From an uncultured cyanobacterium (lineage in GTDB: Bacteria > Cyanobacteriota > Cyanobacteriia > PCC-9006 > JAAUQQ01): DNA of 64,000 bases. Under the pieces are notes generated by a model. That model worked only from the letters and a program-made list of their open reading frames with translations, was not told the origin of the DNA and did no database searches. This document shows, piece after piece, positions 52,166-54,628 of the stretch. Both the position numbers and the translations under genes were made by a program. The stretch covers positions 1,824,001 through 1,888,000 of the forward strand of contig OY970368.1 of the NCBI GenBank assembly GCA_963718615.1, given 5' to 3'. The number at the start of each line of letters is the position of its first letter. Positions within the stretch are counted from its first letter, which is position 1.

Positions 52166-54250
52166 TTAGAGCCAGGTCGATCGCAAGTTGACCAGTTTTT
52201 CGAGGAGGGCGAGGGCTTCGGTGTGGCGCTCATAAAAACGGAGGTTTTGTATCCAGTTTTCGTAGCAAATGGCAAAGTTTTCTCTGATCTGGATCATGTT
52301 GGGATGCTGTAGACCAAGCAGAGGTTCTAGGATTGCCAACGCTTCCACATACAACGGTTCCGTTTCTCCATAACGGCCCTGGGAACGATACAGTTCCGCC
52401 AAGTTATTCAGACCTTGGGCGGTGTCGGGAGGGCGATCGCCCAGTTCCGCTTTCTTGATTTCCAACGCTTCGACCAACAACGGTTCCGCTTCTCCATAAC
52501 GGCCCTGGGAGTCATACAGTGCCGCCAAGTTATTCAGACTACCGGCGGTGTCGGGATGGCGATCGCCCAGTTCCGCTTTCAAGATTTCCAACGCTTCCAC
52601 ATACAACGGTTCCGCTTCACCATAACGGCCCTGGGAACGATACAGTAACGCCAAGTTATTTAGACTGCTGGCGGTGTTAGGATGGCGCTCGCCCAGTTCC
52701 GCTTTCCAGATTTCCAACGCTTCCACATACAACGGTTCCGCTTCAACATAACGGCCCTGGGATTCATACAGTCCCGCCAAGTTATTCAGACTGGTGGCGG
52801 TGTGGGGATGGCGCTCGCCCAGTTCCGCTTTCCAGATTTCCAACGCTTCCACATACAACGGTTCCGCTTCAACATAACGGCCCTGGGAGTCATACAGTCC
52901 CGCCAAGTTATTCAGACTGGTGGCGGTGTCGGGATGGCGATCGCCCAGTGAGCTTTTGCTGATTTCGAGCGATCGCAAATAACACCGCTCTGCCTCAGAC
53001 CACAAGCTCAAACTCTGGTAATACCGAGCTAATCCAGTAGAGCACCAAGCTTTATCCGTTCCCTCCAAAACGCCCGTCCACCGCGCCGCCACCTCCTCCA
53101 AATGGGGCACCGCTGCCGCCACCACCTTCCGAATATCAACCGTTACATCCTGCGGAATCGTCTGAGCAACCCCCACCATCACCTGGGCAAAGGCCCGCTG
53201 CAATTCCTCTGCCCCCTCCTGCTCCGCCAACTTAATCTGCAAAAACTCCCGCACCAGCCCATGCAGCCGATAGACAAACGACCCCGTCTCTAACTCCTCC
53301 CGATTCAACAAACTCCGCTTCACCAACTCCCGATCCAAACAATCCCGAACCACCTCCCCATCCCGCTCCGGTAAACTCGCCACCACCCAATCCGCCTTCA
53401 CCGGAGCCAACGCAAATAACCCCAACAGCATCGCGACCTGCTGCGCCGCCTCATCCAGCGTCTGCCAACTCAGCTCGATCGCCGCCTGCACATTCCGCCC
53501 ATAATCCATCTCCCCCGGCACCTCCACCAACGGCCTCGCCGCCAAAGACTGTCGCTTCAGTTGCTCCAGCACCGCCGCGATCGACCCCGTCCCCTCCGCC
53601 AAATACCGCCCCACCAGCTCAATCCCCAGCGGCAAATAGCCCAGCCACTCACACAGCGCCCGCGCCGCCTCGATCTCAAACCGCCGCTCATCCCCCATGA
53701 GCTCCCGCAACAGCACCAGCGCCGCCTCCGGCTCCAACACCCCCAACGGCAAACACCGCACCGGAGGCTGCATCTGCACCCGCGTCGTCATCAACACCCG
53801 AAACGCCCCCTGGTTGGGCAAAAAGCGCTTCACGTCTCGGTATTCACCCACATCATCCAGCACCAGCAGCTTCCGCCCCGGCCACCGCGCCTCCCAGCGC
53901 CCCAGATAATGCTGGACAATCTGCGCCTCGCTCCAGTCCGTCGGCAGCTCCTCTTTTGCCACCGATCGCTCCACCAACCCCAACACCTCCGTCACCAGCC
54001 GCGCCACCGCCACCCACAAAATCCCACCGGGATAATCCGCTCGATGCTGCTTGACATAGCGCTTCGCCAGCGTCGTCTTGCCCACGCCGCCCATGCCCAC
54101 GGCGGCAATGGCGACGCGATCGCCATTCTCCAAAAGCTTCTGGAGATCAGAGAGTTCCTGGTCACGACCCACAAAGATCGCGCCGTCAAAGTCCTCAGGA
54201 TAAAAATAGGGGGTAGTTAACTTTGGCGGTGCCCCTCCCGCCGAGTCCAG
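52166..54250 (-). CDS. NB-ARC (STAND NTPase) plus TPR-repeat protein, bacterial NLR-like; no canonical start codon before its FVGR motif
   Basis: FVGR..EL, Walker A GMGGVGKT, Walker B LLVLDDV, TTR, GYLPL and MHD-like LHGL; five 42-aa TPRs. The frame stays open upstream to the in-frame TGA at 54251-54253. Confidence 0.9.
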   Translation of the reverse strand: MDSAGGAPPKLTTPYFYPEDFDGAIFVGRDQELSDLQKLLENGDRVAIAAVGMGGVGKTTLAKRYVKQHRADYPGGILWVAVARLVTEVLGLVERSVAKEELPTDWSEAQIVQHYLGRWEARWPGRKLLVLDDVGEYRDVKRFLPNQGAFRVLMTTRVQMQPPVRCLPLGVLEPEAALVLLRELMGDERRFEIEAARALCEWLGYLPLGIELVGRYLAEGTGSIAAVLEQLKRQSLAARPLVEVPGEMDYGRNVQAAIELSWQTLDEAAQQVAMLLGLFALAPVKADWVVASLPERDGEVVRDCLDRELVKRSLLNREELETGSFVYRLHGLVREFLQIKLAEQEGAEELQRAFAQVMVGVAQTIPQDVTVDIRKVVAAAVPHLEEVAARWTGVLEGTDKAWCSTGLARYYQSLSLWSEAERCYLRSLEISKSSLGDRHPDTATSLNNLAGLYDSQGRYVEAEPLYVEALEIWKAELGERHPHTATSLNNLAGLYESQGRYVEAEPLYVEALEIWKAELGERHPNTASSLNNLALLYRSQGRYGEAEPLYVEALEILKAELGDRHPDTAGSLNNLAALYDSQGRYGEAEPLLVEALEIKKAELGDRPPDTAQGLNNLAELYRSQGRYGETEPLYVEALAILEPLLGLQHPNMIQIRENFAICYENWIQNLRFYERHTEALALLEKLVNLRSTWL
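52316..52945 (-). repeat. Five near-identical 126-bp (42-aa) TPR repeats
   Basis: G(D/E)RHP.TA.SLNNLA.LY.SQGRY.EAEPL.VEALEI.KAEL x5. Confidence 0.93.
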
Positions 54251-54253
54251 TCA
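54208..54253 (-). promoter_or_regulatory. Putative stop-codon readthrough signal: UGA-C, 8-nt spacer, H-type pseudoknot
   Basis: mRNA: UGA CUGGACUC GGCGG G AGGGG CA CCGCC AAAGUUAACUAC CCCCU; stem 1 GGCGG/CCGCC, stem 2 AGGGG/CCCCU. Confidence 0.55.
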
Positions 54254-54628
54254 AACCTCAAACTTGTCAATTCTGATCGGGTTATAGCCACCCTGAATCA
54301 AAATTCCAATCTTCTCTGCAAGCTGTGTGGTGTTCACCACCGCTCCAAACTGTTGCTGCATTGCTCCTGCCGTTGCATTCACCGCCGCCTCAACCTCCGG
54401 ATCCGCCGCCGCGACCCGCTTGACTTCCTCAATGATCTCCACATCAATTACATTCGGGTCGGGTGCTGCCGCCAAGCGCTTCACCGTTTCTGGAGACTTC
54501 CGCTGCAAAACCGCCATGAGTTGCTGTGCTGAGGCGATCGCCCCTTCCCCCAATTTTTCGCCCACCTTCTCCGTTGCCTTGGTTGCCAACAGCGTAAGCG
54601 CGATCGTTGCCAGCGTGATTGGATCCAT
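54251..54628 (-). CDS. Small helical protein, Bell/HeLo-like putative effector with a C-terminal amyloid-like motif
   Basis: Hydrophobic N-helix MDPITLATIALTLLATKA; helical body; tail VVNTTQLAEKIGILIQGGYNPIRIDKFEV; immediately upstream of and in frame with NB-ARC-TPR. Confidence 0.7.
   Translation of the reverse strand: MDPITLATIALTLLATKATEKVGEKLGEGAIASAQQLMAVLQRKSPETVKRLAAAPDPNVIDVEIIEEVKRVAAADPEVEAAVNATAGAMQQQFGAVVNTTQLAEKIGILIQGGYNPIRIDKFEV

Follow-up and report, generated by a model that had tools for sequence, protein, structure and literature searches.

An in-frame UGA conserved among cyanobacterial loci joins a Bell-like effector gene to an NB-ARC-TPR sensor: a candidate programmed readthrough immune module

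A small effector gene and an NB-ARC/TPR sensor are joined by one in-frame UGA in the analysed window, a stretch of 64,000 nucleotides from an uncultured cyanobacterium. The locus is probably decoded by programmed UGA readthrough, which would give an abundant free effector and a rare effector-motif-NLR fusion. This reading is suggested by a comparison of the window with homologous loci. The stop with its TGA-C context is conserved across many cyanobacterial genera and different sensor types, and so are the frame, the spacer of 8 nt and the first stem of a downstream hairpin. An earlier note on this DNA had proposed that one mRNA makes the short effector and a rare fusion, and had suggested that homologous loci be aligned. 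In the alignment, the in-frame stop and the spacer length turned out to be conserved and the first stem to covary. The comparative support for the proposed scheme is thus strong, and the claim may be regarded as partly supported.

The 125-aa effector ORF lies on the minus strand. As the earlier note had stated, it ends with TGA at 54253-54251 and its frame is then open for 694 further codons, up to 52168-52166. The translation across the junction reads ...IDKFEV*LDSAGGAPPKLTTPYFYPEDFDGAIFVGRDQEL. The NB-ARC/TPR sensor is collinear with the effector on the same strand and begins directly after the stop. The RNA string that had been described behind the stop, with an 8-nt spacer and two interlocked 5-bp complementarities, is present in the sequence exactly as written. 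The features of the locus are the following.

54254..54628, minus strand: effector ORF of 125 codons, with ATG at 54628-54626 (ORF list and translation)
54335..54628, minus strand: helical Bell-like domain, residues 1-98, with a hydrophobic N-terminal helix MDPITLATIALTLLAT (AlphaFold2 model)
54254..54328, minus strand: effector C-terminal motif QLAEKIGILIQGGYNPIRIDKFEV, BASS-like, of the amyloid-signalling type (comparison with canonical relatives)
54251..54253, minus strand: in-frame UGA followed by C, the proposed readthrough site (sequence and homologous loci)
54243..54250, minus strand: 8-nt spacer CUGGACUC, with the family consensus CUACAGUC and conserved synonymous positions (alignments)
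54225..54242, minus strand: hairpin S1, composed of GGCGG 54242-54238, the loop GAGGGGCA 54237-54230 and CCGCC 54229-54225 (covariation)
54208..54236, minus strand: candidate second stem S2 of a pseudoknot, AGGGG 54236-54232 in the S1 loop with CCCCU 54212-54208 (complementarity)
54173..54250, minus strand: 26 linker codons LDSAGGAPPKLTTPYFYPEDFDGAIF, without ATG, GTG or TTG (translation)
53543..54142, minus strand: NB-ARC domain, residues 37-236 of the extension (Pfam PF00931, E = 2.1e-15)
54074-54097, minus strand: P-loop GMGGVGKT of the NB-ARC domain (seen in the translation)
52322..53035, minus strand: TPR sensor repeats (Pfam TPR_12, E = 3.4e-84; TPR_10, E = 2.2e-73)
52331-52949, minus strand: 126-nt tandem array within the TPR region (TRF: period 126, 4.9 copies, 90% matches)
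52166..52168, minus strand: stop codon TAA closing the 694-codon extension (sequence)

There are 12 nt between CCGCC, the 3' arm of S1, and CCCCU, the 3' arm of S2.

The comparison set was composed of the window and 80 homologous cyanobacterial loci, which were collected by effector homology alone. A continuation was counted as in frame when it was open for at least 100 codons, or for at least 40 codons up to the contig end. The effector gene ends with TGA-C in 54 loci, and 53 of these run on in frame into a STAND/NLR-type protein. Among the 27 loci with other stop contexts, an in-frame continuation was found in only 4. Of the 55 cassette loci whose frame is open beyond the stop, 53 have TGA-C. 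Three loci (L017, L026 and L029) carry TAG in place of TGA and keep the same post-stop linker. A sense codon in homologues had been named by the earlier note as the sign of a recent nonsense mutation or a sequencing error, and none was found at the stop position in the window and the 80 loci. In 39 of the 57 in-frame loci the stop is followed by CTA, in 10, including the window, by CTG, and in 8 by another codon. Therefore, the CTG after the stop is not an initiator, and the sensor initiation at this codon that the note had considered is unsupported. An independent metagenome set was obtained using a DNA pattern without the stop codon itself. It gave 15 matches, 10 of which are true cassettes and 5 of which are chance matches. 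TGA precedes all of the true ones (10/10), and both sides are open in one frame.

The stop cassette joins the effector to NB-ARC-TPR, NACHT-HEAT-NCC-H, NACHT and GUN4-like proteins. Its exact pattern is rare: of 401 genomes sampled from the class, 5 have it. In the tree of effectors, loci of the two types, stop-joined and canonical, alternate over branches that exceed 1 change per site, which points to an old arrangement. The cassettes probably descend from one ancestor, and therefore the loci are not independent trials. Judged from the homologous loci, the in-frame stop is neither a sequence error nor a pseudogene. Of the 12 stop+1 contexts in the genome of the window, TGA-C is the least used (141, or 4.2%, of 3341 long open frames), and the prfB gene has CUU UGA C at its +1 frameshift site (TAT CTT TGA CC). 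ARAGORN called 51 tRNA genes in the complete genome, with no tRNA-Sec and no UCA, CUA or UUA anticodon. The best match to the selB model, a 410-aa open frame, scored 194.8 bits, below the cut-off of 242.25. The genome is without selenocysteine machinery and suppressor tRNAs.

The post-stop RNA element was analysed with 49 distinct sequences. The spacer length is 8 nt in 49/49, and S1 begins right after it. The paired cells of S1 amount to 95.6% in the 27 NB-ARC-group sequences, with compensatory changes at two pairs, and to 93.9% in the 22 NACHT-group sequences, with such changes at three pairs. For instance, one pair is G-C in 10 sequences, U-A in 10 and G-U in 2, and swaps among A-U, C-G and G-C are seen elsewhere. 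The covariation score of S1 was reached by 0/500 shuffles. S1 has 5-6 bp across the family and the window hairpin only 5 bp; one pair is mismatched in 5/27 NB-ARC-group sequences. The G-run/C-run complementarity of S2 is present in both sensor groups, with 84% and 98% of cells paired. Zero double (compensatory) changes of S2 were found in the NACHT group, and in the NB-ARC group one of its pairs is unpaired (an A.C mismatch) in 11/27 sequences and A-U in 2. S2 is compatible with the data as an unproven candidate. Thus, of the pseudoknot that the earlier note had proposed as the stimulator, the first stem stood, with its compensatory changes, and the second did not gain proof.

Synonymous variation is reduced just behind the stop, which points to a constraint on the RNA: over codons 1-14 the differences are 0.094 and 0.218, compared with 0.27-0.43 and 0.38-0.66 in the flanks, which were regions away from the motif and the stop. 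As a point against readthrough, the linker has a pN/pS of only 0.6-0.9 among the NACHT sequences, and the first four post-stop codons have 1.2 in the NB-ARC group. The 22 NACHT-group sequences are 94% identical over 66 nt; therefore, part of their conservation reflects recent common ancestry. With geometry ranges chosen after the window case had been seen, a 5-bp Watson-Crick hairpin starting 5-10 nt past the stop follows 5.3% of 3341 stops of the same genome, and a two-stem pseudoknot of the window geometry occurs after 2/3341 stops and at 2/1500 internal coding positions. At an MFE of -12.6 kcal/mol, 60 nt of the window fold no more stably than shuffled sequences (z = +0.83), and therefore the case for structure rests on the comparison between loci and not on energy. 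Three other loci were folded, two of which were unremarkable, and only L065 was low (z = -2.58). An Rfam scan of 53900-54700 gave no match.

The earlier note was also right that the 26 linker codons hold no start and that the called GTG falls inside FVGR. The first in-frame ATG, GTG or TTG after the stop is codon 27, a GTG (54172) that encodes V of FVGR. Among the 25 NB-ARC loci, the first such codon is inside or after F-x-G-R in the window and 8 others. TTG, GTG or ATG is present before F-x-G-R in the remaining 16/25, which would allow independent initiation in those. The first start of 4/23 NACHT loci comes after the P-loop. No start codon was found 5-10 nt past GGAG in any sensor group. The sensors of the 22 canonical relatives have start codons of their own (ATG in most) and repeat the effector C-terminal motif. 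Their effectors end with various stops, and relative to the effector the sensor lies in frame 0 in 7 loci, in frame 1 in 10 and in frame 2 in 5. An amyloid motif is absent from the stop-joined sensors, and in the window only the 26-codon linker precedes FVGR. The linker of the stop-joined type is homologous to the canonical linker that follows the sensor N-terminal motif (SSGETP..., KKLTP...), and in both types FVGR comes roughly the same ~25 residues after the motif. The strongest functional argument, which the earlier note had not noticed, comes from this sequence comparison: the motif at the effector end appears duplicated on the N-terminus of canonical sensors and missing on the window sensor. 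In one relative of 909 aa (P0004), the effector is fused directly to NACHT through a different junction without the cassette linker. No further fusion emerged from a search for longer proteins, which is weak evidence.

The effector has 139 homologues, nearly all of which are stand-alone proteins of 110-160 aa. It has no match in Pfam, NCBIfam or PADLOC. The AlphaFold2 model predicts helices over residues 3-108 (mean pLDDT 71.7), and residues 99-125 with the C-terminal motif are predicted to be disordered (pLDDT <50). A Foldseek search of the model against the PDB gave no match with E <= 0.001. In the nearest ESM Atlas clusters, found as language-model neighbours, PF20701 HetE-N occurs in 18-54% of members. 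The PF20701 HetE-N profile itself matched 0/26 effector family members, even at E <= 1. The N-terminal MDPITLA... helix may resemble that of Bell or HeLo-like (HetE-N) domains. Bell-like helical domains make membrane pores in related systems. The C-terminal motif is BASS-like and is a putative amyloid-signalling motif. Its class is common to canonical pairs, where it is found at the effector C-terminus and the sensor N-terminus (e.g. L039, L041 and L047). The stop cassette was found behind effectors with at least four different C-terminal motifs.

In the proposed mechanism, one transcript would give the two products of an immune module whose 125-aa effector carries a Bell-like domain and a C-terminal amyloid-signalling motif. 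The UGA-C context is recognised poorly by release factor 2 (RF2). Most ribosomes would terminate at UGA-C, and a minority would insert an amino acid at the UGA, most likely via a near-cognate tRNA such as tRNA-Trp. The readthrough may be aided by the conserved post-stop bases and by the hairpin, possibly a pseudoknot, located 8 nt downstream at the mRNA entry channel. The ribosomes that read through would proceed into the linker and the NB-ARC-TPR sensor to make a rare product of ~820 aa, which would place the effector and the amyloid motif where canonical sensors hold their own N-terminal motif copy. The TPR part would sense a trigger, upon which the NB-ARC part would oligomerise and the clustered motifs would nucleate an amyloid fold. 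The nucleated fold would convert the abundant free effector and lead to cell death. Readthrough and its rate are inferred, as are the residue put in at the UGA, the templating by the amyloid motif and the pore activity of the effector. Since a single coding copy would yield both the executioner and the nucleating sensor, translation fidelity would set the sensor-to-effector ratio.

Other readings of the locus have to be weighed. It is unlikely that two separate proteins are made without readthrough, with sensor translation starting by itself at a GTG/TTG farther downstream or at a non-canonical codon. In that case, the conserved post-stop element would serve as a translational coupling or attenuation hairpin that keeps the sensor low, with a G-rich Shine-Dalgarno-like loop maskable by the C-run, and the two genes would share a frame as a remnant of an earlier fusion. 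The starts before F-x-G-R in 16/25 NB-ARC loci and the GGAG/GAGG-type sequences in the hairpin loop of most loci agree with this. Bell and NLR genes are also often tightly packed or overlapping, which suggests coupling, according to the available part of the text of Dyrka et al. (10.1101/2020.01.06.895854). However, the sole start in the window is inside FVGR, in 4/23 NACHT loci the first start even follows the P-loop, and none lies 5-10 nt beyond GGAG in any group. A relic frame is expected to be lost via indels, but 53/54 TGA-C loci keep it, and the groups differ by indels whose lengths are divisible by three. A sensor started in this way would have neither the effector domain nor the amyloid motif, unlike the 22 canonical relatives, and the linker directly after the stop is homologous to the translated linker of canonical sensors. 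Conditional readthrough as a trigger is less probable still. The stop would be tight in healthy cells, and the fused sensor would be made only when UGA termination is compromised, for example through a suppressor tRNA encoded by a phage, a stop-recoded phage or the loss of RF2 activity, so that the sensor dosage reports an attack on translation. The stop is read by RF2 in its weakest context, as prfB uses to sense RF2 levels here, and the genome itself encodes no suppressor tRNA. The TAG in three loci further implies that selection is for a stop and not for one codon. On the other hand, this is speculative; the hairpin and the context look like elements that raise basal readthrough, and a sensor absent beforehand would need synthesis during infection.

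The stop occupies the same position in 55 loci of many genera and in 10/10 pattern-defined metagenome cassettes, and the 694 post-stop codons are intact. This makes it very improbable that a recent nonsense mutation or an assembly error interrupted a once-fused effector-NLR gene, which would now be a decaying pseudogene, even though a lone in-frame stop between two domains is the usual pseudogene signature. The fused relative P0004 would fit such a history, but its junction is different and without the cassette linker, and the search for longer proteins, which is weak evidence, gave no second fused form. A dedicated decoding of the UGA, as selenocysteine via a SECIS-like hairpin or by a cognate suppressor tRNA, is hardly credible at all. 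Bacterial SECIS elements are hairpins placed shortly after the UGA, and the hairpin of the locus has a comparable position. The absence of tRNA-Sec and suppressor tRNAs from the ARAGORN calls, the selB score below the cut-off, the Rfam scan without a match and the TAG in three loci all stand against it. Programmed UGA readthrough with two products is thus the preferred reading.

The locus is similar to the Bell/BASS effector-NLR pairs (Dyrka et al. 2020, preprint 10.1101/2020.01.06.895854; Bab/Agp, Ibarlosa et al. 2024, preprint 10.1101/2024.11.07.622273). A collinear NB-ARC/NACHT repeat protein directly follows a small helical effector whose C-terminus carries an amyloid-type motif, the host is a filamentous-type cyanobacterium, and 22 of the effector relatives are textbook pairs. 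In contrast to them, the window sensor is without a motif copy and its own start codon, and it is joined by a conserved in-frame stop. In the available part of the text of Dyrka et al., the pairs were selected by matching motifs on both proteins; therefore, the stop-joined type would escape that survey. The terms stop codon, readthrough, in frame, pseudogene and frameshift are absent from that paper. Full-text literature searches found no earlier description of a stop-joined effector-NLR arrangement. As in all-in-one NLRs such as P0004, the readthrough product would be an effector domain fused to a NOD. It differs from them in that the conserved stop would give a major free effector and a minor fusion, with the amyloid motif between the effector and the NOD.

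Stop-codon readthrough stimulated by RNA structure is an established mechanism in viruses and eukaryotes, including retroviruses, alphaviruses, plant viruses and increasingly animals. Phage Qbeta A1 is a case of UGA readthrough at a low rate. To our knowledge, structure-stimulated readthrough is not established, and is essentially undescribed, for bacterial chromosomal genes. Like murine leukaemia virus (MuLV) gag-pol, the locus has a stop, a spacer of exactly 8 nt and a structured element, and an abundant short and a rare fused product are proposed here. Unlike gag-pol, it has UGA instead of UAG, a bacterial ribosome and release factor, stems of 5-6 bp with the second unproven, and a chromosomal cellular gene. 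The 8-nt spacer and the pseudoknot of MuLV are given by titles in the reference list of PMC7026636, and C+4 and UGA-CUA are named as readthrough-promoting contexts in the available part of that paper. The family consensus UGA-CUA (39/57; UGA-CUG in the window) is like the leaky contexts of the alphavirus type and of eukaryotes, but the data on UGA-C and UGA-CUA concern termination by eukaryotic eRF1, whereas RF2 would act here. The slow-terminating UGA-C is shared with the prfB +1 frameshift site (CUU UGA C), whose outcome depends on RF2 activity. However, prfB shifts to +1 with an upstream Shine-Dalgarno sequence, while the locus stays in the 0 frame and its conserved element is downstream. 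In-frame stops conserved among prokaryotic orthologues were described by Belinky et al. 2021 (PMC7918605), who cite 6% basal UGA readthrough in Bacillus subtilis. In contrast to the present locus, those cases are described without a defined downstream RNA element or immune function, and the paper has no mention of cyanobacteria, NB-ARC or secondary structure.

A wider claim is evenly balanced in our judgement. A modular cyanobacterial recoding cassette, composed of UGA-CUA, an 8-nt spacer and a hairpin or pseudoknot with covarying pairs, would be without precedent among bacterial chromosomal genes as a structure-assisted signal for programmed stop-codon readthrough. It would replace the sensor-side amyloid motif of Bell/BASS-NLR pairs. 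Because the signal would be read by RF2 in its weakest context, the sensor dosage could also respond when a phage interferes with termination. Gene-calling programs split these sensors or give them a wrong start, as seen from the called start inside FVGR in the window, and surveys that demand matching motifs on two proteins overlook the whole class. The cassette is ~60 nt long and portable across four sensor architectures. Therefore, it can be tested directly with reporters, and it might serve as a tunable leaky stop for work in cyanobacteria. If the preferred reading is true, a design problem of amyloid signalling would be solved: the sensor needs a copy of the nucleating motif, scarcity and a match to the effector, and all of them would be achieved because both proteins come from one coding sequence. 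Recoding would then join the ways in which bacterial immune systems are built.

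The layout claimed in the earlier note was reproduced by translation. The effector frame ends in TGA followed by C, and the same frame then stays open for 694 codons:

54628 (ATG) to TGA 54253-54251, then C; minus strand; effector open reading frame of 125 codons (ORF list and translation)
to 52168-52166; minus strand; in-frame extension of 694 codons without a stop (translation)

In Pfam, the extension, hereafter the sensor, matched NB-ARC at its residues 37-236 (PF00931, E = 2.1e-15), TPR_12 (E = 3.4e-84) and TPR_10 (E = 2.2e-73). The observation of this stop-joined locus, in which effector and sensor share one frame across a stop, is confirmed. 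The host genome is complete (6.10 Mb, 52% G+C). The absence of a credible canonical start for the NLR was also borne out; the first in-frame ATG, GTG or TTG is codon 27, a GTG that encodes the V of FVGR. The RNA string given in the note was exact: an 8-nt spacer, GGCGG, an 8-nt loop GAGGGGCA, CCGCC, 12 nt, and CCCCU pairing with AGGGG of the loop. The hairpin 8 nt after the stop is called S1, the candidate second stem S2, and the stop with spacer and S1 region the cassette. When 51900-55000 was scanned for promoters and terminators, neither kind of site appeared between the two frames; the two terminator-like matches of the scan lie elsewhere, and they were fewer than in shuffles.

The TPR region of the sensor contains a 126-nt (42-aa) tandem array at 52331-52949 (minus strand) with 4.9 copies, 90% identity and no indels; strong conservation among internal repeats of this kind has been reported for the repeat domains of NLRs. 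Two Uma2-family genes for putative endonucleases (54701-55510 and 50368-50928, both minus strand) and a XisH/XisI pair (51316-51774 and 51765-52130, plus strand) flank the locus. A creatininase (55446-56186), a RadA/KaiC-like ATPase (48953-50371) and an alpha/beta hydrolase (56793-57638) lie nearby. By eye, an open frame resembling the Uma2-family gene of the window also sits upstream of the effector in one relative (L003).

Homologous loci (L-numbers) were chosen by effector homology only and comprised two same-family relatives and 80 loci from species-representative genomes. Their genera include Nostoc, Tolypothrix, Anabaena, Calothrix, Scytonema, Leptolyngbya, Nodosilinea, Phormidesmis, Stenomitos, Alkalinema and others. 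The window and the 80 loci were counted, and a frame was taken to continue when it stayed open for at least 100 codons, or for at least 40 up to a contig end. TGA-C ends the effector in 54 loci, and 53 of these continue in frame, whereas only 4 of the 27 loci with other stop contexts do so. Two of the four (L052 and L058) are ordinary pairs with the sensor's own ATG three codons past the stop. The other two, L017 (TAG-T) and L026 (TAG-C), have the linker of the TGA loci behind their stop. The truncated L029 (TAG-C) has it too, and its extension closes after 46 codons near a contig end. Altogether, the intact stop-joined arrangement was found in 55 loci with the stop at the identical place, followed by L(Q/E/D)S(S/A)G(E/G)AP(P/T)KL... 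or LQSSxGEDGTKLTP.... A sense codon at the stop position, which had been considered for the homologues, was found in none of the counted loci. A pseudogene or an assembly error was rejected on this conservation. Degenerate copies do exist: in L010 just two codons follow the TGA-C, L036 is truncated and lies upstream of a transposase-like ORF, and the cassette of L021 is one base out of frame, possibly by an indel error since this locus comes from a MAG.

A second set was collected from metagenomes with a DNA pattern downstream of the stop, the stop itself being left out of the pattern. Ten of the 15 matches were true cassettes, and TGA precedes all ten with both sides open in one frame; the other five were chance matches in unrelated short frames. 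Of 401 genomes sampled from the class, 5 contain the exact consensus cassette string and none its reversed control, which shows the rarity of the exact string and not the absence of variants.

The stop-joined loci were compared with 22 canonical amyloid-signalling pairs, where the effector stop is TAA, TAG or TGA-T. The canonical sensor begins 10-290 nt after the effector, or with a short overlap, at its own start (ATG in most), and its frame, counted from that of the effector, is 0 in 7 loci, 1 in 10 and 2 in 5, as chance predicts. It repeats the C-terminal motif of the effector within its first ~25 residues (for example, ...EKIGVVNQGTIVNQTNNLSF in the effector and MTEPIAEKIGVVNQGTVYNQTNNITI in the sensor). 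In contrast, the stop-joined sensors have no motif of their own, and that of the window has no start of its own. Their linker is homologous to the post-motif stretch of canonical sensors, as in SSGETP...ENLPLSGVVEFVGR of L039 and GQKKLTPTK of L056, where the codons AAG TTA ACC CCC are the same as in the stop-joined linker. Both kinds have about 25 residues between the motif end and FVGR. Therefore, the stop lies exactly at the boundary of motif and linker. Only through readthrough would the sensor gain the motif found in all its canonical relatives.

In the effector tree, whose branches exceed one change per site, stop-joined and canonical loci are interleaved and the canonical label needs at least 2-3 changes; the stop-joined loci with a NACHT sensor form one clade (100/100 support). 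Two loci of the effector family occur in one Tolypothrix genome (L077 and L082) and in another (L034 and L085). Such genomes hold a stop-joined locus plus a canonical, or a second stop-joined, locus, and therefore both designs coexist in one cell.

The context of the stop was compared with 3341 long open frames of the host genome. Among the twelve stop+1 contexts, TGA-C is the least frequent (141, 4.2%), and 5.3% of stops have a 5-bp hairpin 5-10 nt behind them. A two-stem pseudoknot of the window geometry, with ranges set post hoc, was found at 2 of 3341 stops and at 2 of 1500 internal coding positions. The 60 nt folded from the window do not stand out by energy (MFE -12.6 kcal/mol; z = +0.83 relative to shuffles). 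Rfam gave no known family at the site; at E <= 10 there was just a chance lncRNA match on the opposite strand.

For the conservation of the element, 66 nt from the stop were aligned in 49 distinct sequences, sorted by sensor type into an NB-ARC group (27) and a NACHT group (22). The spacer is 8 nt in 49 of 49. In the NB-ARC group, 95.6% of S1 cells are paired, compared with no more than 54% in slid controls, and 0 of 500 shuffles reached the S1 covariation score. One of its pairs is G-C in 10 sequences, U-A in 10, G-U in 2 and mismatched in 5, and another is G-C in 24, A-U in 2 and G-U in 1. A pair that is G-C in the window is U-A in the nearest relative (L006), changed on both sides. In the NACHT group, S1 has six pairs with double changes in three (U-A/C-G, C-G/U-A and C-G/G-C). 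The peptide changes along with these double changes (A/S with P/T), and this suggests that it is the pairing which is constrained and not the amino acids. Synonymous differences in post-stop codons 1-14 are 0.094 and 0.218, and in flanks away from the motif and the stop they are 0.27-0.43 and 0.38-0.66. Further downstream, the substitution pattern carries a clear coding signature: pN/pS is 0.12 over codons 15-23 of the NB-ARC subgroup, where Leu after Lys is kept via TTA/CTA/TTG. As for S2, a G-run of the loop would pair with a C-run at the Thr-Pro codons, and this complementarity is present in both groups though the sequences differ (GGGG/CCCC and GGGAG/CUCCC). S2 shows zero double changes in the NACHT group, and 11 of 27 NB-ARC-group sequences have A.C at one pair, where A-U rescues occur in just two. 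Of the pseudoknot proposed earlier, the hairpin S1 is therefore well supported, and S2 is a candidate stem. Two other folds were discarded: a nested long hairpin predicted for the NACHT group had no double changes and all 500 shuffles scored equally well, and an extension of S1 in the window MFE fold (GACU/AGUU) was, by eye, not kept across the alignment.

Other ways of producing the sensor were considered. A prfB-like +1 frameshift came into question through the resemblance of the context to CUU UGA C and was rejected, as the sensor is read in frame 0; L021 is displaced by a single base, and there the alternative frame is open for just 20 codons. The host prfB itself (about 4929.4 kb, outside the window, locus L091) carries the classical +1 frameshift site TAT CTT TGA CC, a second recoding event at UGA-C in this host. 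UGA-C therefore already serves as a slow-terminating signal in the organism. Decoding by selenocysteine or a suppressor tRNA was rejected for the host genome. ARAGORN listed 51 genes in the complete genome, including one tRNA-Trp (CCA), with no tRNA-Sec and no stop-anticodon tRNA; the best selB-model match (194.8 bits) is below the 242.25 cut-off, and TAG variants of the cassette exist. The same program made two overlapping tmRNA calls, one permuted, at 4934458-4935480 of the genome (outside the window), presumably as expected for a cyanobacterial two-piece tmRNA.

The scope for independent initiation of the sensor differs between loci. Nine of 25 NB-ARC loci, the window among them, have their first canonical start inside or after F-x-G-R, and in 4 of 23 NACHT loci it is past the P-loop (codons 138-147 vs 113). 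The other 16 of 25 NB-ARC loci have TTG, GTG or ATG at codons 11-25, before F-x-G-R, and those 16 may therefore initiate independently. Initiation at the CTG directly after the stop, one of the alternatives named in the earlier note, was rejected: among 57 in-frame loci this codon is CTA in 39, CTG in 10 and another one in 8, which excludes a conserved CTG initiator. The NACHT group (L054-L085) has a 4-codon mini-ORF at nt 26-40 after the stop, GGAGG ATG GGA CAA AGT TAA. It lies in the +1 frame and abuts the Shine-Dalgarno-like GGAGG. The NB-ARC group lacks it, and it probably arises as a side effect of the codons for E-D-G-T-K-L.

The cassette appears with diverse partners. The sensor types behind the same stop and cassette are NB-ARC-TPR, NACHT-HEAT-NCC-H, NACHT alone, a weak nSTAND5 match and GUN4-like, and the effectors upstream carry at least 4 different C-terminal motifs. 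In L009:3879-4607, a TGA-C cassette links a Bell-like effector to a 242-aa GUN4-like protein (PF05419, E = 1.3e-25) with no NLR. In L034 and L035, the effector is linked by it to 133 further residues that match nothing in Pfam, and a hairpin is not obvious at these two loci.

No Pfam, NCBIfam or PADLOC model matched the effector. An exhaustive HMMER search of 1.84 billion representatives gave 139 relatives (P-numbers), nearly all of them stand-alone proteins of about 110-160 aa. Four are clearly longer (909, 364, 223 and 221 aa), with extra sequence past the effector domain in P0004 (909 aa), P0074 (364 aa) and P0014 (221 aa); a dedicated homology search for longer, fused forms, by its nature weak evidence, returned none. 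In the relatives, a hydrophobic helix at the N-terminus (MDPITLA...) is followed by a helical body and, at the C-terminus, by a motif such as KLAEKIGVVNQGTIxNQTNN, which in the window is KIGILIQGGYNPIRIDKFEV. The AlphaFold2 model is helical over residues 3-108 (mean pLDDT 71.7, <50 from residue 99), and Foldseek against the PDB found nothing significant. PF20701 HetE-N is annotated in 18-54% of members of the nearest ESM Atlas clusters. Its HMM matched 0 of 26 effector family members even at E <= 1, and Pfam at E <= 1 gave no name to the effector in these 26. The term Bell-like rests here on architecture and context rather than on a family profile.

The kinds of phenomena proposed here, programmed readthrough and amyloid-signalling NLR pairs, are known. 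In its available text, a review (PMC7026636) states that a +4 C and UGA-CUA promote readthrough, and its reference list gives the MuLV signal as 8 nt plus a pseudoknot. Belinky et al. (PMC7918605) describe in-frame stops that are conserved in prokaryotes and, for B. subtilis, cite UGA readthrough at a basal level of 6%. A full-text search covering few subscription journals found no paper linking readthrough or in-frame stops to Bell/BASS, the known amyloid-signalling effector-NLR pairs, or to bacterial NLR genes. The key Bell/BASS survey (10.1101/2020.01.06.895854) picked pairs by matching motifs on both proteins, and the words stop codon, readthrough, in frame, pseudogene and frameshift are absent from its available text.

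The UGA-readthrough reading of the locus is well supported by comparison, with 53 of 54 TGA-C loci in frame and the covariation of S1; S2, and with it the pseudoknot, is a candidate. The comparison demonstrates the conservation, the lack of a start and of a motif on the sensor of the window, and the constraint on the RNA, whereas we infer readthrough, its rate and the inserted residue, and likewise the amyloid and pore steps. At the UGA, the majority of ribosomes would terminate and release the effector. A minority would decode it by a near-cognate tRNA and so yield an effector-motif-linker-NB-ARC-TPR fusion. The context at +4 to +12 would aid them, as would the structure at the mRNA entrance, a hairpin or pseudoknot. 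When activated and oligomerised, the fusion may cluster its motifs, nucleate the amyloid fold and recruit free effector, in the way reported both for the canonical Bell/BASS pairs (10.1101/2020.01.06.895854) and for Bab/Agp (10.1101/2024.11.07.622273).
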